64,000 bases of DNA from Actinomycetota bacterium (GTDB lineage: Bacteria; Actinomycetota; AC-67): contig JBKKBZ010000116.1 of assembly GCA_046713235.1 (NCBI GenBank), positions 2,742 to 66,741 on the forward strand. The letters run 5' to 3'. Below the pieces are notes generated by a model, which did not search any database, had not been told where the DNA came from, and was given only the letters and a program-made list of their open reading frames with translations. Shown in pieces: positions 44,731 to 52,516 of this stretch; position 1 is the stretch's first letter, and every line of letters starts with the position of its first letter. The position numbers were made by a program, and so were the translations under genes.

Positions 44731-46365
44731 TCATCCTCGGCTAGCCCGTTCGGGCCCGTCTCCCGGTAGACCCAGCAGTGCCTGTGCGACCAGGGGAACC
44801 GGCATGGACCCCTCGTTGAGCACCCGGTCGTGAAACTCCGTTAAAGAGAATTTCGGCCCCTCCCGCCGCTTGACCTCCCGGCGAAGCCGGAGGATTTCCT
44901 CCTTACCGATCGCGTAGGACATCTGATAGCCGGGGGTAAAGGCGTACCGGCGGACCTCTGCCTCGGCGTTCGGGCGCTCCACGTCGGCCTCGCGGACGAG
45001 CATGTCCACCGCCTCCTCGACGGTCATCGTCCCCTGATGCAGGCGCATGTCGATCACAACCCGGCACGCGCGCCACAGCTCGTCTTTTAACTGGCATAGG
45101 CGCGACTGCGGAGAGAGCAGCCCCTGCTCGTGGCCGAGCTCTTCGCAGTAGAACGCCCAGCCTTCGATGAGCAGCGGGGAGTCGCCCAGCCGCCGGACGC
45201 GCGACGGATGCCGGTTGGCCCGCGTGAGCTGGAGATGGTGGCCGGGATAGCCCTCATGCAGTGCCACGACGGGGATCGCCGCGCGGGCATGGTCTTTGAG
45301 TGCCTCGAGGTTCCCGTCTGGCGGGGTGACCCAGAAGATGCCGCGCTGATCCTCCTCGAACGCGCCCGGCACCGTATAGGCGGCGAAGGGCATGGTGTGG
45401 CGCCAGAACAGCGGTGTCGCCATGACGTCGAGCGGCGCGTCGGACGCCGGCGTCGCCAGGCGCCGATCCCGGACGACCTGTTCCGTCCAGCGCATCGCCT
45501 CGGCATACGCGTCCACGAGGGCGTCGGGCGACGGAACGTCCTTCTTCGTTTCGGCAACTGCCGAGCGCCAGTCGGGAAAGCCGAGCGACCCGGCGACGGC
45601 CGAGATCTCTTCGCCGATACGCCGAAGCATGTCCTCTCCGCGAAGTGCGATCTCGTCGGGTGCGTCGGGCAACAGGTGATGGGCGGCGACGATCCTCGAG
45701 AGCAACTCCGCACCGACGGCCGTCGGTGCGGTGCTCCGCGCCAGGTAATCGTCCCGAAGCCATGCGGCGTGCTCGCGTAGCGCCTCGGCCGCGGGCCCGG
45801 CGGCCTCGCGAACGGCGCGGCCTGCTGCGCCGAGCGGTTCCACCCATGCCGGTATCTCGTCCTCGATCAACCCCACGCCGCCTTCTGCCGATTGAATTGC
45901 CGTCTCCGTGAGCACGCGCGGGGTGTCGGTCAGCGTGGCACGTGATCGCGCCAGGTAGGCCGGGAGCTCTCCGAGCCGCCCGGCAAGTGATGCGGCGCGC
46001 TCGTGCGCCGGAGCGAACTCCCGCTGCATCAGGAAAAAAAGTCCGGTGAGCGCGAGATCGACCGCCTGATCCGGGTTCCGCTGCCACCATCGGGTGTCCT
46101 CGGCCTCGAGCAGCTCGGAATCCAGGAGATGAAGGAGGAAGCGACGGTCGATGCGGTCCGCCTGGGATGCGGGGGCCGTATCCTCTACCCCTCGCCGCAA
46201 CGCCCGGAGCGCCGATGCGTATGCGGCTACGGACTCGTCGGTGTAGGTCCCGAGATCGCCGTCGCGGTCGTGCAAACCGAGCAACGTACCGGCGACGGGA
46301 TGCGTCGAGGCAAGAAGCTCGATGAACCGGTGCCCGATTGACTCCAAAAGCTCGTGGGTAGTCAT
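44731..46365 (-). CDS. DUF885-family protein (metallopeptidase-like HExxH-related HEGYPGHH)
   Basis: ATG 46365 of ORF 44731..46419 overlaps the upstream gene stop (ATGA). Contains HEGYPGHHLQ. Confidence 0.78.
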   Translation of the reverse strand: MTTHELLESIGHRFIELLASTHPVAGTLLGLHDRDGDLGTYTDESVAAYASALRALRRGVEDTAPASQADRIDRRFLLHLLDSELLEAEDTRWWQRNPDQAVDLALTGLFFLMQREFAPAHERAASLAGRLGELPAYLARSRATLTDTPRVLTETAIQSAEGGVGLIEDEIPAWVEPLGAAGRAVREAAGPAAEALREHAAWLRDDYLARSTAPTAVGAELLSRIVAAHHLLPDAPDEIALRGEDMLRRIGEEISAVAGSLGFPDWRSAVAETKKDVPSPDALVDAYAEAMRWTEQVVRDRRLATPASDAPLDVMATPLFWRHTMPFAAYTVPGAFEEDQRGIFWVTPPDGNLEALKDHARAAIPVVALHEGYPGHHLQLTRANRHPSRVRRLGDSPLLIEGWAFYCEELGHEQGLLSPQSRLCQLKDELWRACRVVIDMRLHQGTMTVEEAVDMLVREADVERPNAEAEVRRYAFTPGYQMSYAIGKEEILRLRREVKRREGPKFSLTEFHDRVLNEGSMPVPLVAQALLGLPGDGPERASRG

Positions 46366-47948
46366 GTGCCGGAATCCTCTCTCGCTGTTCCGATCGGAGT
46401 GGCCCGCTCGATCTCCCACAGCGAAGCGTTCTCATTATAGGAAAGTCGAACGCGCTGGCCGGCCGCTCGGACGACGAATACGCGGCGCCGCACTCCATCG
46501 CGTTCCTCCAAGGCCCGCCACACGACGTCCTCGATCGGTATCTCGCGATCGCCCAGGAGGATGGCTCGCGGAGCCTCGTCGGCGCGCGACCCGGAATATG
46601 AGCGCACATTCACGAGCTCCCCTGCGGAGAAGGGGGACGCAATCGTTTCCTTTCGGGTAGCGGCAGGCTTGCGGTGTCCCCAGCGTCGCTCGAGCTTCCA
46701 TTCCCACACCGCGAATCCTCCTGCGCAGAGCAGGAACGCAAGCGCGATAGCCCCCACTGCCGCTCGTGTACCGGCGCCCAACCCGTATGCTGCCGCGATG
46801 ATCGCGATCCCGACTACCCGGGCGATATTGAACAGCACGTCGTAGACTGCGAAGGCTCGTCCCCGGACGTCATCGGCCATCTCCTGCTGGACGATCGTAT
46901 CCACGGGGATCTTGGCGAACGCATAGGCGACGCCGACGACACCGGCTCCGGCGACGAGAGTGACCCGGTTGAGGCTTACCACGCCGAGCGAAGCGCCGGC
47001 TGCGGCGATGAGAAGAGCCGCGGGAATCAGGATGTCGTGGCGCAGCCGTCGCCCCACAACGGGGACCAGGATGACTCCTGCGCCGATTCCGATCGCGAGG
47101 ACGGCGAGCAGACCGAAAGCGGACCCCTCGTCGAGCCGAAGCTCGGCGATAAAGTAGTGAACGATCACGCCAATCATCGCCCCGACCAGCACCTGCAAGA
47201 TCCCCACGGCCGTCAGACCGAAAACGACCCTGTGGTCGGCGCGAACACGGCGCAGGCCCTCCACCATCTCGTCGGTAACTTCCCGAAGCTCATCGCGCAC
47301 GGGGGCACGTCGTGGCGTGAACCCGCGATGAACCGGCACGAGCCGTGCGACCATTGCGCTGATGGCGAATGCGACCGCGGCGAGAAGCGAGGTCCGAATT
47401 CCCCCGATTACTGCCGAGACGGCGGAGCCGATGGCCTGGCCGGAGACGTTGGCAACTGCGCCGCCGGTGGTGGCGGCCGAGTTGGCTACGAGAAGGTCAT
47501 CCTCCGGGACAAGTTGCGGCAATGCTGCCGACATCGTCGCCAGGAAGAAGCGATTCGCGGAAAGCACGACCAGAACCACGGCGTAAAACGGGATGCTTCC
47601 GGTTCCGGCGACGGCGGCGGCCGCGGGAAGAAGCGCTGCGACCGCCGCGCGCAACAGCGGCACTCTGGTGAGGATCTTTCGGCGCTCCCACCGATCGATG
47701 AAGACGCCGACGAAAGGGCCGATCACGCTGAAGGGCACCAGGGTCACTGCGCTGATGACCAGCAGATCGACGACGGGGTTGGGACTCGCACGCTCGAAGA
47801 GCAGCACGGCGGCCGCCGAGAATTGGAATAGGCCGTCCCCGAACTGGGAGACGAGTCGTGCGGAAAAAAACCGTCGGAAGCCCGCACCGGCGAAGATCTC
47901 GCGGAGGCGCTCCAGCGTGCCGACGGCGTCCTGAGTGCCGCTCGACAC
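46362..47948 (-). CDS. MFS transporter with about 110-aa C-terminal soluble extension
   Basis: ORF 46362..48137. The preferred start GTG 47948 follows AGGAGGG and avoids overlap with ino1. There are 12 TM-type segments (FRRFFSARLVSQFGDGLF...), then a hydrophilic tail ...RSYSGSRADEAPRAILLGDREIPIEDVVWRALEE... Confidence 0.78.
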   Translation of the reverse strand: MSSGTQDAVGTLERLREIFAGAGFRRFFSARLVSQFGDGLFQFSAAAVLLFERASPNPVVDLLVISAVTLVPFSVIGPFVGVFIDRWERRKILTRVPLLRAAVAALLPAAAAVAGTGSIPFYAVVLVVLSANRFFLATMSAALPQLVPEDDLLVANSAATTGGAVANVSGQAIGSAVSAVIGGIRTSLLAAVAFAISAMVARLVPVHRGFTPRRAPVRDELREVTDEMVEGLRRVRADHRVVFGLTAVGILQVLVGAMIGVIVHYFIAELRLDEGSAFGLLAVLAIGIGAGVILVPVVGRRLRHDILIPAALLIAAAGASLGVVSLNRVTLVAGAGVVGVAYAFAKIPVDTIVQQEMADDVRGRAFAVYDVLFNIARVVGIAIIAAAYGLGAGTRAAVGAIALAFLLCAGGFAVWEWKLERRWGHRKPAATRKETIASPFSAGELVNVRSYSGSRADEAPRAILLGDREIPIEDVVWRALEERDGVRRRVFVVRAAGQRVRLSYNENASLWEIERATPIGTAREDSGT

Positions 47949-48009
47949 GGTGGTCAACCCTCCTGGTGGAGGATCCTGCCGGCCGCACCCACCGGCACCA
48001 TCTCGGCGA

Positions 48010-49179
48010 TTAGCGGAGGTCGGACGGAGCCAGCAGCGGTTCGCGCGTGCCGTTGGACGGTGCGAGTCCGTTGGGATGAGCGCCGTTTCCGGAGACCGGC
48101 GTGCCGACGATGAACTCCTCGACCAGCTTTCTTGCAACCTCGTCCGGGTACTGGGCGGGCGGGGACTTCATGAAGTACGAACTCGGCCCGACGAGCGGAC
48201 CGCCGATCCCCCGGTCGAGGGCGACCTTCGCGCACCTCACGGCGTCCACGACGATCCCCGCGGAGTTCGGCGAGTCCCACACCTCGAGCTTGAGGTCCAC
48301 CGTCAGTGGGACGTTTCCGAACTCTCGTCCCTCGAGCCGGATGTGCGCCCATTTGCGATCGCTCAACCAAGGAACGTGGTCGGACGGCCCGATGTGCACG
48401 TCGTCCTTACCGAGGCTCCGGCGCATGTTCGATGTGACGGCTTGCGTCTTGGAGATCTTCTTCGACTGGAGGCGCTCGCGCTCCAGCATGTTCATGAAGT
48501 CCATGTTGCCGCCGAAGTTCAGCTGGTACGTGTGGTCGAGATGCACGCCCCGGTCTTCAAAAAGCTTCGCGAGCACGCGATGCACGATCGTCGATCCCAG
48601 TTGACTCTTGATGTCGTCGCCGATGATCGGCAGGCCGGCGGTGCGGAATCGTGTCGCCCATTCCTCGCGCGATGCGATGAAGACGGGGATGCAGTTTACG
48701 AACGCAACGCCGGCTTCCAGGGCTGCCTCGGCGTAGAAGCGCGTCGCCATCTCGCTGCCGACGGGAAGGTACGAGACCAGGACGTCGGTGCCGGACTCGC
48801 GCAGCGCCGCGGCGACGTCGACCGGGTCCGACGGTGCTTCCTCCACCATCTCGCGGTAGAACTGACCGAGCCCGTCGAGAGTGTGTCCGCGAAGAACCTC
48901 GATGCCGACCGGCGGGACATCGGCGAATTGGATCGTGTTGTTCGGTGGCGCAACGATCGCCTCGGCGAGATCCCGGCCGACCTTCTTGGCGTCCACATCG
49001 AAAGCGGCGACGAACTCGATGTCGCCGACATGGTAACGGCCGAGTGAAACGTGCATGAGACCCGGAACATCGTCATCGGGCTGCGCCCCGGCGTAAAAAT
49101 GCACGCCTTGCACGAGCGACGAGGCGCAATTGCCGACACCGGCGATTGCGACCCGGACTTTCTTTGCCTCAATGCTCAT
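48010..49179 (-). CDS. ino1: myo-inositol-1-phosphate synthase
   Basis: ORF 48010..49179. Contains [27 protein letters not shown] and [10 protein letters not shown]. Confidence 0.93.
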
Positions 49180-49205
49180 CTACGTCCTCCTAATCGGTCC
49201 CGCGC

Positions 49206-49778
49206 TCAACCCATACCTTCGACGGGGCGTGCGGGCTGGGGCGGCGGGGTGCCGTTTCCGCTGGTTCCGTTCCGCTCGGCCTCGAGCATGCCGTCGAGCC
49301 AGCGAATGTCGTGCTCCGCTTCATCGACGCCGTACCGCATCAACTCGAGCGAGTAGGCGTCCATCTTGTCGCGCAGCCGCTTCAGGCTCGCCGCCATCTT
49401 CGTGAGACGGTCCTGCAAGTAGCCGCGCCGTCGTTCCAACAGTCTCCGTCGAGACTCCGGCCGCATGTAGCGGCTGAAAGCAAGGCGAAGCATGAACGCA
49501 TCGCGGTCGCTCACCTCTGGGGAGGCGGCCTCGAGCTGGTCGGTAAAGAGCTGCTCACCCTTCGCTGTGATGCGGTAGACATTCTTGCGGCGCGGGGTTT
49601 CCCCGGCCGGGGTTTCGAATTCCACGGCCTGGTCTCGAGCCAGACGCTTGAGAGTCGGATACAGCGACCCGTAGGAGAAGCGCCAGAAGTGCCCCAACTG
49701 CTCGTCGAGGTTTTTCTTGAGCTCGTAGCCGTGCATGGTCTTCTCCTTGAGAAGCCCCAACACTGCAAGCTCGAGCAT
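49206..49778 (-). CDS. PadR-family transcriptional regulator
   Basis: ATG 49778 of ORF 49206..49889 gives MLELAVLGLLKEKTMHGYELKKNL...SYGSLYPTLKRLARD (PadR wHTH). The longer ORF would translate the repeat array. Confidence 0.85.
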   Translation of the reverse strand: MLELAVLGLLKEKTMHGYELKKNLDEQLGHFWRFSYGSLYPTLKRLARDQAVEFETPAGETPRRKNVYRITAKGEQLFTDQLEAASPEVSDRDAFMLRLAFSRYMRPESRRRLLERRRGYLQDRLTKMAASLKRLRDKMDAYSLELMRYGVDEAEHDIRWLDGMLEAERNGTSGNGTPPPQPARPVEGMG

Positions 49779-49815
49779 TTGCGCTATCCTCCAGATCGCC
49801 ACGATCGGGCCGCCA

Positions 49816-49880
49816 CGATATCTCGGAACGATATATCGACGCGATATATCGACGCGATATATCGAGTCGATATATTGTCG
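49816..49880. repeat. five tandem 13-bp units centred on the palindrome CGATATATCG (putative operator array)
   Basis: Unit starts fall at 49816, 49829, 49842, 49855 and 49868. The units read CGATATCTCGGAA, CGATATATCGACG, CGATATATCGACG, CGATATATCGAGT and CGATATATTGTCG. The array lies in the 192-bp padR/DUF5318 divergent intergenic region. Confidence 0.9.
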
Positions 49881-49970
49881 GGGCTGCACCCTCGCCTGTC
49901 AAACACCACGGTCGGTGACCGAATTGCGTCCCTTGGGGTGCTTGCAGCCGGGCGTACAATGCGTTCCACC

Positions 49971-50333
49971 ATGGCAGCAGCGATCGACTACCGGATGGCG
50001 AAGCGAGCCATCCTGCGCCAGCTCCGCTACGGGCTTCTGTCCAGGCTAGATGTGTGCGACGCGCACCCCGAGCTTCTGCGCGCCGCCCGCCACATCGGGG
50101 TCGAGACCTCGGACGTGTGCCCGGTTTGTGAGAGGGAGTCTCTCCGCCTCGTCGTCTACACCTACGGCAAGGCACTGAAGCGAGGCAGCGGCCGCGTGCG
50201 CCGTCTCCAAGATCTTCACGAGTTGCGCCGCGAGGTCGACGAGTTCATCTGCTACGTGGTCGAGGTGTGCACCCGGTGCCAGTGGAACCATCTGGTGCGG
50301 TCCTACCTCACCGGACGCCGGCACGCCGTCTAG
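49971..50333 (+). CDS. small Cys4 protein, DUF5318/Rv0049-like
   Basis: ATG 49971 within ORF 49311..50333 gives MAAAIDYRMAKRAILRQL...CPVCERE...CTRCQWNHL. It holds the conserved position between padR and ponA. Confidence 0.75.
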   Translation: MAAAIDYRMAKRAILRQLRYGLLSRLDVCDAHPELLRAARHIGVETSDVCPVCERESLRLVVYTYGKALKRGSGRVRRLQDLHELRREVDEFICYVVEVCTRCQWNHLVRSYLTGRRHAV

Positions 50334-50419
50334 TACCGCTTTGTCCGGGCTTACCGCCCCCTCCTCCGCTTGGATGTCGGTTGTCCTGGGTAGCCTCGTC
50401 GCAGGAGGGAGTTTCAATC

Positions 50420-52516
50420 GTGAAGACACGACCACGGGCTCGGGCCTCACGCACCCCAATGAAGGGCCGCCGCGGACGCTCGCGCTTCGGTCTCGACGCG
50501 GCTCGGGTGAAGCGGTGGCTGATCTTCGCCGTCCCAGGGTCGCTCGTGCTTGTGTTGTTGCTGCTCGGCCTGGCGTACGCACTTGCCCGCGTGCCGGAGA
50601 CGTCCGACTTCGCGACGAGCCAATCGACGATCATCACCGACCGCTACAACCAGCCTTTCGCGCGGTTTCACGCTGAAGTCGATCGCTCGGACGTTCCGTT
50701 TGAGGAGATGCCGAAGTACCTGCGGGACGCGGTCATCGTTGTGGAAGACCGAACGTTCTACCGGCATGGCGGGGTCTCGGTCTCGTCCGTAATCCGAGCC
50801 GCATTCACGAACCTGGTTAACAGGGACGTGGTGCAAGGGGGGAGCACGATCACGCAGCAATACGTTAAGAACGCCTATGTCGGCCGGGAACGCACGTACT
50901 GGCGCAAGATCAAAGAGGTCATCGTTGCCATGAAGCTGGAGCGCTCGGCGTCGAAAGACGAGATCTTCGAGCAGTATCTGAACACTGTGTATTTCGGCGG
51001 GGGAGCATACGGTGTCGAGGCCGCCGCCAGAACCCATTTCGGCCGACCGGCAAAGGCGTTGTCGCTGTCGCAAGCCGCATTTCTGGCCGGAGCGATTCAC
51101 GCGCCACAGCGATACGCCGAGGATCCGGAACGCGCCCGGGAAAGACGCAACGCCGTGCTCGACACCATGGTCGACCTCGCCAAGATCTCGTCGAAGGATG
51201 CCGAGGCGGCGAAGGGGGAGACCCTGAGCTTCGTCCGGCGCCCACCCAACTTTGACACCTCGGTAGGGATCTATTTCGTCGAGGACGTGCGCAAGCAACT
51301 CATCGACGAGTTCGGGGAGAACAGGGTGTTTCGCGGAGGTCTTCGGGTGAGGACGACGCTCGATTTCAAGATGCAGCTGGCCGCCGAGGAGGCGGTGCGC
51401 AAGACACTCGATCGCCCCGACGACCCCGAGGCGGCCCTGGTCGCGGTCGAGCCGCAAACGGGGGCAGTGCGTGCGCTGGTCGGAGGTCGCGACTTCGCGC
51501 GCCAAAAGATGAACCTCGCGACTCAGGGCCGCGGCAGGCAACCGGGAAGTGCGTTCAAGCCGTTCATCCTCGCGGCGGCGCTCGATGAGGGGACGTCGAT
51601 TAAATCGACTTTCCGGGCGCCGTTTTCCATCGTGCTGAAAACCGGGTTCGAGCCGTGGGACGTGTCGAACTACGACGAGCGCGACTACGGAACCCTCGAT
51701 CTTCTCGACGCCACCGCTTTCAGCGTTAACACCGTCTACGCGCAGCTCATTCTCGAGGTCGGGCCACGCGCAGCTGCGCAGGCTGCCCAGCGCGCCGGGA
51801 TCACCAGCCCGATGTCGGCAGTGCCCTCACTTGCCCTGGGGACGAAAGAGGTGAAGCCGATCGAGCTCGCCGGCGCGTACGCGACGTTCGCCAACCGCGG
51901 CCTGCATCTTGCGCCGCACCTGATCGAGCGCGTGGTCGCCCCCGACGGAGAGGTCCTCTTCGAGGCTGAGATCGAGCCGGTGCGGGCTTTCGAAGAGAGG
52001 GTTGCGAACACCGTCAACTACGCGCTGCGCAACGTGATCGAAAGGGGCACGGGTCGCAGTGCCGCGTTCGGCCGGCCGGCAGCCGGAAAGACGGGTACGA
52101 CCGAGTTCCACGTCGACGCCTGGTTCGCGGGGTACACGCCCGAGCTTGCCGCCGCGGTGTGGATGGGGTACCCGCAGGGTGGGAAACGTATGGAGAACGT
52201 GCGCGGGGCCGCCGTGGTGGGAGGGTCGTTCCCCGCGCAGATCTGGCGCGCGTTCATGTCGGCGGTGCACAACGGAAAGCCGATCACCGATTTTGGCAAG
52301 CCGGATCTCGGCGGGGCGGTGGCATCATCGACGCCGTCGGTGGCGCCGTCACCGAGCCCGAGTGCGACCACTATTCCTCCCTCGTCGTTCTCGCCGGCAC
52401 CCTCGCTCCCGCCGAAGAAGACGAAGCCGCCGTCGCCCGGACCCTCCCCCACGTCCTCGCAGAGTTCCTCGCCGACGCCGACGCCGACGCCGGCGCCGGC
52501 ACCCGGTCCCACCTAG
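50420..52516 (+). CDS. ponA: class A penicillin-binding protein (transglycosylase/transpeptidase)
   Basis: ORF 50267..52516. The preferred start GTG 50420 follows GGAGGGAG. GT51 motifs: VVVEDRTFYRHGG and GGSTITQQYVKN. TPase motifs: SAFKP, SVN and KTGTT. The C-terminus is a Pro/Ser-rich tail. Confidence 0.93.
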   Translation: MKTRPRARASRTPMKGRRGRSRFGLDAARVKRWLIFAVPGSLVLVLLLLGLAYALARVPETSDFATSQSTIITDRYNQPFARFHAEVDRSDVPFEEMPKYLRDAVIVVEDRTFYRHGGVSVSSVIRAAFTNLVNRDVVQGGSTITQQYVKNAYVGRERTYWRKIKEVIVAMKLERSASKDEIFEQYLNTVYFGGGAYGVEAAARTHFGRPAKALSLSQAAFLAGAIHAPQRYAEDPERARERRNAVLDTMVDLAKISSKDAEAAKGETLSFVRRPPNFDTSVGIYFVEDVRKQLIDEFGENRVFRGGLRVRTTLDFKMQLAAEEAVRKTLDRPDDPEAALVAVEPQTGAVRALVGGRDFARQKMNLATQGRGRQPGSAFKPFILAAALDEGTSIKSTFRAPFSIVLKTGFEPWDVSNYDERDYGTLDLLDATAFSVNTVYAQLILEVGPRAAAQAAQRAGITSPMSAVPSLALGTKEVKPIELAGAYATFANRGLHLAPHLIERVVAPDGEVLFEAEIEPVRAFEERVANTVNYALRNVIERGTGRSAAFGRPAAGKTGTTEFHVDAWFAGYTPELAAAVWMGYPQGGKRMENVRGAAVVGGSFPAQIWRAFMSAVHNGKPITDFGKPDLGGAVASSTPSVAPSPSPSATTIPPSSFSPAPSLPPKKTKPPSPGPSPTSSQSSSPTPTPTPAPAPGPT

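Follow-up and report, generated by a model that had tools for sequence, protein, structure and literature searches.

A phased palindrome array upstream of padR-ino1 is probably a long form of a conserved PadR autoregulatory operator

The intergenic region upstream of padR in the window (the whole 64-kb stretch of DNA that was analysed) carries a phased array of short palindromes. We consider it likely that this array is the autorepressor operator of the adjacent InoR/NapM-type PadR, placed on the padR-ino1 promoter of a lineage that has gained a 13-bp unit. Judged by its sequence, the array is an unusually long copy, by one or two extra units, of a deeply conserved and otherwise ordinary autoregulatory operator. 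The regulator gene, padR (49206-49778, minus strand), encodes the presumed array binder, a two-domain PadR with Pfam matches to PF03551 (PadR) and PF10400 (Vir_act_alpha_C). The presumed target, ino1 (48010-49179, minus strand, myo-inositol-1-phosphate synthase), begins 27 nt downstream of padR in the same operon. On the other side of the array lie DUF5318 (49971-50333, plus strand), a divergent neighbour outside the padR-ino1 system, and after it a class A PBP gene (50267-52516, plus strand).

The array occupies 49816-49880 and consists of five 13-bp units, each made of a 10-bp AT-cored palindrome and a 3-bp spacer. On the plus strand, 49816-49877 reads CGATATCTCG gaa CGATATATCG acg CGATATATCG acg CGATATATCG agt CGATATATTG. 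The three central CGATATATCG units (49829-49838, 49842-49851 and 49855-49864) are perfect, while CGATATCTCG (49816-49825) and CGATATATTG (49868-49877) each contain one mismatch, and the period is exactly 13 bp, just as the original prediction had described. In the padR sense (minus strand) the array reads CAATATATCG act CGATATATCG cgt CGATATATCG cgt CGATATATCG ttc CGAGATATCG tgg, where CAATATATCG is the promoter-proximal unit (49868-49877) and CGAGATATCG the promoter-distal one (49816-49825), which takes the form CGAGACATCG or CGAGATACGG in close relatives. Two of the 13-mers are identical (CGATATATCGcgt in the padR sense). Tandem Repeats Finder reported a period of 13 with 3.6 copies and 94% matches, a direct-repeat finder returned spacings of 13, 13 and 13, and the G+C content falls to 0.54 at the array, compared with 0.60-0.73 in most neighbouring 100-nt windows. 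Allowing one mismatch, the 10-mer occurs five times in the 64-kb window, every time inside the array, against 0.98 copies expected by chance. None of 100 shuffles of the 64 kb reached five, which bears out the earlier claim that such a block is unlikely to arise by chance. The distances first given, 38 bp to padR and 91 bp to DUF5318, are also correct for ATGs at 49778 and 49971.

The array sits on a predicted promoter. A consensus promoter scan identified TTGACA-17-GACAAT upstream of padR with 10/12 consensus matches, giving a putative -35 element (TTGACA, 49897-49902) and a putative -10 element (GACAAT, 49874-49879) on the minus strand, and a Shine-Dalgarno-like GGAGGA (49787-49792, minus strand) lies 8 nt ahead of the padR ATG. 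The last four bases of the predicted -10 hexamer are the first four of the promoter-proximal unit, so the site overlaps predicted core promoter elements of the regulator's own gene. By this reckoning padR transcription would start near 49867, and the remaining four units would lie inside a leader of ~89 nt. The gap between TTGAC and the first unit is 18-19 nt (mode) in most orthologous loci, and the window has the same register. The placement of the array on the predicted padR promoter is the classical position of a repressor operator. The consensus scan also found a promoter-like match, TCGACG-16-TATATT, inside the array on the plus strand, which was set aside since the DUF5318 neighbour is not conserved. 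Just upstream of the padR -35 element, at 49909-49921 (minus strand), there is a terminator-like hairpin, CGGTCACCGACCG, whose T-rich tail runs into TTGACA and which is probably a chance scan match.

To place the array in an evolutionary context, we drew on orthologous padR loci. A first group of 84 loci (L001-L084) has PadR proteins 47-85% identical to that of the window; 80 of these came from a PadR-alignment scan of Actinomycetota MAGs, with one genome per species and 47-70% identity, and some of the 80 are labelled Nitriliruptorales, Euzebyaceae, Egibacteraceae or Actinomycetes. Adding three later look-up loci and the window, followed by de-duplication, gave a non-redundant set of 86 loci. 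All of the first 84 carry CGATATATCG-like units (up to two mismatches) within 160 nt upstream of padR. When at most one mismatch was allowed across the 86 loci, the gaps between units were 13 bp (42 cases), 26 bp (28), 39 bp (1) and 15 bp (1), meaning that all except one are multiples of 13 bp. The motif is conserved in place at these loci and is rare elsewhere, with 157 units (up to one mismatch) in 19 kb of DNA upstream of padR and 2 in 410 kb of flanking DNA. The 15-bp element ATATCG-N3-CGATAT, which we refer to as the core, is more sharply confined, with 105 occurrences in the 19 kb and 0 in the 410 kb.

A scan of metagenomes by DNA alone, for CGATATATCG-N3-CGATATATCG, matched at least 120 loci. 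In 99 of the 120 listed loci, a padR homologue (32-84% identical) starts 8-140 nt downstream of the match, and several of the 21 others listed (e.g. L098, L179, L206) are cut by a contig end. The largest cluster of distant PadRs recovered by the motif has its named close homologues in Acidimicrobiia. Because the motif is present across the orthologues and a blind scan for it tracks padR, we conclude from these comparisons that both the motif and the 13-bp phasing are ancient and conserved in this PadR orthologue group, and not peculiar to the window. The proposal of a regulatory site linked to padR thus gains support from motif conservation upstream of padR orthologues, and the phasing upstream of those next to ino1, suggested as a check, is indeed conserved.

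The comparative data also indicate which of the two divergent transcription units the array belongs to. It had been suggested that the array controls both ino1-padR and DUF5318-ponA. In every protein-selected locus with enough sequence (83/83), ino1 directly follows padR, whereas a divergent DUF5318 gene within 500 nt is seen in only 21 of 87 loci. In Mycobacterium tuberculosis DUF5318 and Rv0047c are separated by a DUF1707 gene, and the motif is still directly upstream of Rv0047c; another locus (L088) has the array next to an unrelated upstream gene. The window array stops at 49877, which leaves 56 bp to the nearest plausible promoter element of DUF5318, and both the TACAAT -10-like hexamer at 49955-49960 and any DUF5318 -35 element are more than 50 bp away. 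By the pattern of conservation, then, the array is a padR-ino1 element, and the second half of the suggestion, control of DUF5318-ponA, finds no backing.

Several observations concern the genes on either side. In close relatives (L001-L004), padR, ino1, an MFS transporter gene and a DUF885 gene are co-directional with very short gaps, and in the window padR, ino1 and the MFS gene are likewise co-directional with very short gaps (46362-49778, minus strand); the operator may therefore control an operon longer than padR-ino1. On the divergent side, GTACAATG is conserved just ahead of the DUF5318 coding sequence (window 49954-49961, plus strand; L001 2756-2763; also L003, L004 and L209). It contains TACAAT (49955-49960, plus strand), a perfect -10-like hexamer 10 nt ahead of the annotated DUF5318 ATG at 49971, and an in-frame ATG at 49959. 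This arrangement suggests either that the DUF5318 transcript is leaderless or has a very short leader, or that the start codon is earlier than annotated. Further along, the longest PBP-gene ORF shares 67 nt with the 3′ end of DUF5318 (50267-50333); since relatives keep the two genes separate (by 93 nt in L001), the PBP gene of the window probably starts further downstream than this ORF does.

We then asked what the minimal binding element might be. The conserved element is probably ATATCG-N3-CGATAT, an inverted repeat centred on the spacer, and not the 10-bp palindrome; cores strung together every 13 bp read as CGATATATCG palindromes with 3-bp spacers. The window array contains four overlapping 15-bp cores, one with a single mismatch (49820-34) and three that are perfect (49833-47, 49846-60 and 49859-73), with adjacent cores having two bases in common. 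The case for the core as the binding unit is built on three patterns. One is that mycobacteria keep the core alone, which is AATATATCG agg CGATAC upstream of Rv0047c in M. tuberculosis (L085 2395-2445) and CAATATATCG gcc CGATAC in M. grossiae, with a single mycobacterial 15-bp core upstream of napM also at L087 2415-2445. This mycobacterial core sits directly after TTGACG-N17 upstream of napM. The edges of the arrays provide another pattern, as the first unit shows weak conservation of its outer CG at the 5′ edge (0.4 and 1.0 bits, against 1.5-2.0 inside), and at the 3′ edge a CG..AC half-site follows a 3-nt spacer after the last unit (edge logos). Lastly, a frequent architecture consists of a full unit, a left half only, a full unit and a weak left half, which amounts to two cores 26 bp apart.

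The geometry of these elements fits, by analogy, that of PadR family dimers. Two units 13 bp apart make one 23-bp palindrome, which is a normal footprint for one winged-helix dimer. In Bacillus subtilis, one PadR dimer binds each palindromic operator through its two winged-helix domains, on an 18-bp palindrome with half-sites 12 bp apart, and the padC promoter has two such operators (PMC5728393). In Clostridioides difficile cdPadR1, the recognition helices are ~34 Å apart (PMC5050560). Two features count against the autorepressor-operator reading. The centres of the core's half-sites are separated by ~9-11 bp, compared with a longer 12 bp for B. subtilis PadR, and the well-conserved outer halves of two-unit operators are incompletely explained by a single 15-bp core. 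The arrangement of one dimer on each 10-bp palindrome was ranked lower: the centres of its CGAT/ATCG arms are separated by only 6 bp, mycobacteria keep the spacer-centred element and not the whole unit, and array edges end in inward-facing half-sites.

The PadR protein itself has as its best solved structure 8JXK, M. tuberculosis NapM/Rv0047c (E 5.8e-33, residues 1-170), and by sequence it is the orthologue of Rv0047c/NapM. Orthology to Streptomyces InoR is proposed by gene position only. As a PadR-family orthologue with ino1 immediately downstream, the window protein belongs to the ino1-linked PadR group. NCBIfam contains no model dedicated to these orthologues, nor one for the DUF5318 protein. 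Y18 and Y40 of the window protein align with Tyr20 and Tyr42 of B. subtilis PadR, the residues that supply most of the binding energy (PMC5728393). The base-contacting H38/S39/Q40 of the B. subtilis protein are replaced by Y36/G37/S38, which are part of the stretch SYGSLYP. Across the aligned orthologues S35, G37, S38, Y40 and P41 are invariant and Y36 nearly so, and SYGSLYP is also present in NapM. A conserved, non-canonical recognition helix of this kind fits a conserved, non-canonical operator. The operator is non-canonical in that both half-site sequence and spacer length differ from the canonical PadR boxes (ATGT-N8/10-ACAT, CNTGNA-N6-TNCANG), the unit logo here being CGATATATCG and the core ATATCG-N3-CGATAT; the original prediction was right to set the array apart from operators described for the family.

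Among characterized regulators, NapM/Rv0047c is similar in its co-transcription with ino1 and in its padR-ino1 gene order with DUF5318-ponA nearby; it differs in having one core in mycobacteria, compared with four in the window, and in a protein identity of ~40%. NapM has been described as a nucleoid-associated, DNA-bridging and largely sequence-unspecific protein that antagonizes DnaA, with 573 ChIP-seq sites, and neither of these two papers mentions a specific operator for it (PMC13340245, PMC6377630). Such a non-specific nucleoid role does not obviously match a dedicated operator, which also counts against our best explanation. Deletion of napM in M. smegmatis raises ino1 expression, and inositol-phosphate metabolism is the most de-repressed pathway (PMC13340245). 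The likeness to InoR (SCO3900)/inoRA of S. coelicolor is that the regulator gene adjoins, and is co-transcribed with, the inositol-phosphate synthase gene, an arrangement that is general in actinomycetes (PMC4255298, PMC7581861, PMC4125116).

B. subtilis PadR (PDB 5X11) shares the family, the two-domain architecture and the two key tyrosines, whereas its half-site is CNTGNA with a 6-bp spacer and 18 bp overall, as opposed to ATATCG-N3-CGATAT here, and it regulates a detoxification gene and not its own operon. C. difficile cdPadR1 and Lactococcus LmrR are, like the system proposed here, autoregulatory PadRs whose target promoter contains several inverted repeats rather than one. In cdPadR1 the two sites are 27 bp apart and need an AT-rich centre, and multiple EMSA species suggest higher-order complexes (PMC5050560). 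However, the repeats of cdPadR1 and LmrR are separate and non-overlapping (TACT-N11/12-AGTA, ATGT-N8/10-ACAT), whereas the units here are head-to-tail with palindromes that two sites could share, and both proteins belong to the subfamily with a single-helix C terminus. PadR promoters with two sites are thus already known (bsPadR-1 and -2, cdPadR1, LmrR), and the present operator differs from them in half-site sequence, in head-to-tail arrangement and, for the window, in copy number. Our literature search found the motif described nowhere; the 2012 InoR primary paper lay outside that search, and a prior description is possible.

The value of the core is that ATATCG-N3-CGATAT is a concrete, testable operator, conserved from Acidimicrobiia and Nitriliruptoria to Mycobacterium, which can be used for re-examining NapM ChIP-seq data, for predicting the regulon (with two candidate extra targets) and in reporter assays. 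The most useful by-product of this analysis is a specific candidate operator for the NapM/InoR group, whose mycobacterial member has mostly been regarded as a nucleoid protein of little sequence specificity.

The window differs from most loci in the number of its units. The 86 protein-selected loci have one unit (3 loci), two (42), three (34), four (5) or five (2). Two is therefore the commonest state, two or three units account for 76 of the 86, and the five units and four overlapping cores of the window are the maximum among the loci examined. Three perfect units or four good cores were found in the window only, among 175 loci. Three relatives with PadR proteins 84-85% identical all have the synteny DUF5318 <- -> padR-ino1-MFS-DUF885, and in them the sequence CGATATATCG nnn CGATATATCG nnn CGAGACATCG occurs at the same place and period with fewer units; a degenerate in-phase unit overlaps their CACAAT or TACTCT -10-like hexamer. 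L209, the nearest relative identified (PadR 94% identical, intergenic DNA ~87% identical), has four in-phase units, GAATATAGCG gac CGATATATCG gct CGATATATCG ttt CGAGATACGG, one fewer than the window. The presence of two identical 13-mers in the window, together with one unit fewer in this relative, points to a recent 13-bp tandem duplication as the source of the extra unit. Copy number does differ between relatives, over a range of 2-5 units.

Negative autoregulation of padR-ino1 is the best-supported mechanism, since deletion of napM de-represses ino1 in M. smegmatis and the operator lies on the -10/start region. Under this model, dimers of the adjacent PadR would bind the ATATCG-N3-CGATAT cores, with the first unit over the -10 hexamer and the other four at about +1 to +52. 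As the array covers the -10/start region, the bound dimers would block RNA polymerase binding or promoter escape, and padR and ino1 would therefore be repressed. A metabolite effector would presumably relieve the repression. A 13-bp tandem duplication in the window lineage would then have led to five units and four cores in place of the usual two or three units, and repression would presumably become tighter or sharper with these added sites. The sequence of the array, its conservation, position and phasing and its gain of a unit are observed; that PadR binds it we infer through guilt by association, and the direction of regulation, the stoichiometry and any simultaneous occupancy of cores likewise go beyond the observations. 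The window offers a natural five-unit allele for probing the effect of site number on repression.

The exact consequence of the extra units could be nil. It is quite possible, though we hold it to be doubtful, that the operator is conserved and that the window's additional units are a neutral, recent tandem duplication without regulatory consequence. The two identical 13-mers and the 94%-identical relative with one unit fewer are as expected for such an event, and for 76 of the 86 protein-selected loci two or three units are enough. Nevertheless, several unrelated lineages (L010, L026, L031, L039, L054, L063) carry 4-5 units that have diverged, as have their spacers, indicating that long arrays can persist, and the outer units of the window are nearer to the consensus than those of its relatives. 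We think it unlikely, if worth stating, that NapM/InoR-type PadRs, instead of binding as isolated dimers, polymerise in a 13-bp register along such arrays, with the array at their own promoter acting as a specific nucleation site and the number of units (2-5) setting the repression threshold of inositol synthesis. Successive dimers of a polymerising PadR would be rotated by ~86 degrees, bringing units i and i+4 back in phase; neighbouring cores may be occupied together in this rotated fashion, or only alternately at 26-bp spacing. If true, filament formation would reconcile the DNA-bridging nucleoid behaviour of NapM with a deeply conserved specific operator. The cooperative wrapping or iteron-like titration raised earlier is nonetheless not needed to account for the array, because two units form a palindrome of one-dimer size and are the commonest state, and PadR promoters with two sites are known (PMC5728393, PMC5050560). 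Cooperative binding by several dimers is still conceivable.

Other readings would remove PadR, or any protein, from the array. It is improbable that the binder is instead a LacI-type IpsA homologue, WhiI or the DUF5318 protein, even though IpsA is a regulator of ino1 in Corynebacterium that also binds the locus in M. tuberculosis (PMC3899939), the DNA-binding domain of WhiI is reported to bind the S. coelicolor inoRA promoter (PMC4125116), and two other gene types also have the motif upstream. Against this, padR accompanies the motif in 99 of the 120 listed blind matches and in every orthologous locus, whether DUF5318 is adjacent or not. For IpsA, the M. tuberculosis site is inside the Rv0047c ORF and not upstream of it. 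LacI operators are even-length palindromes with a central CG, a symmetry unlike either symmetry centre of the array. A purely structural role, in which any unit pairs with any other in a 5′-leader RNA hairpin or a DNA cruciform, appears very improbable. The 115-nt leader does fold to -45.1 kcal/mol with the units stacked in a long hairpin (z = -2.2; 4 of 200 shuffles were as stable), and the repeat finder reported long inverted repeats. Yet of 419 variable inter-unit pairing columns, 336 break the pair and only 16 are compensatory; with pair-breaking changes predominating across loci, it is the sequence that is conserved and not the pairing. In addition, 49650-50100 has no Rfam match at E up to 1, the predicted unit-unit hairpin leaves out both the Shine-Dalgarno sequence and the start codon, with the Shine-Dalgarno region pairing in a separate weak outer helix, and mycobacteria keep only one and a half units.

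The variation in unit number, 2-5 between lineages and one apart between close relatives, would fit a slippage-prone, repeat-number phase-variation switch or an iteron-like titration array, both raised in the original prediction, but we regard both as extremely improbable. There are only three perfect 13-bp copies, and the array starts at the -10 element and runs downstream in non-coding DNA, whereas the repeats of a contingency locus are placed inside an ORF or between -35 and -10, where unit number switches expression; with the units downstream of the -10, gain or loss of a unit leaves the -35/-10 spacing unchanged. Iterons are direct, non-palindromic repeats next to a rep gene or an origin, whereas the units here are palindromic and the immediate neighbours (ino1, padR, DUF5318, PBP and the MFS transporter gene), all of housekeeping type, include no replication gene or origin context. 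Neither idea from the original prediction is therefore retained.

Beyond the padR loci, the exact 23-bp element CGATATATCG-N3-CGATATATCG also follows -10-like hexamers upstream of two other gene types on high-GC metagenome contigs (L096, L106, L159, L174; L109/L126/L129, L155, L167). One type encodes a P-loop protein of ~225 aa (Cytidylate_kin2-like) and the other a SAM-dependent methyltransferase of ~245 aa (Methyltransf_11). As these gene types are unrelated, the site is not exclusive to padR, a further point against our best explanation, and the P-loop and methyltransferase genes may be additional regulon members in some lineages. The same two-unit operator occurs at a padR homologue in contigs of lower G+C content (L197, 44%; L208, 54%; L187, 53%), with ino1 following the padR homologue in L197 and L208; the module or the operator may thus reach beyond typical high-GC Actinomycetota. 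At one further locus (L161, 9866-9888 plus flanks), ino1-like segments were matched several times over overlapping ranges and an intact padR was not detected adjoining the operator, which may represent a decayed copy of the locus or an assembly problem.
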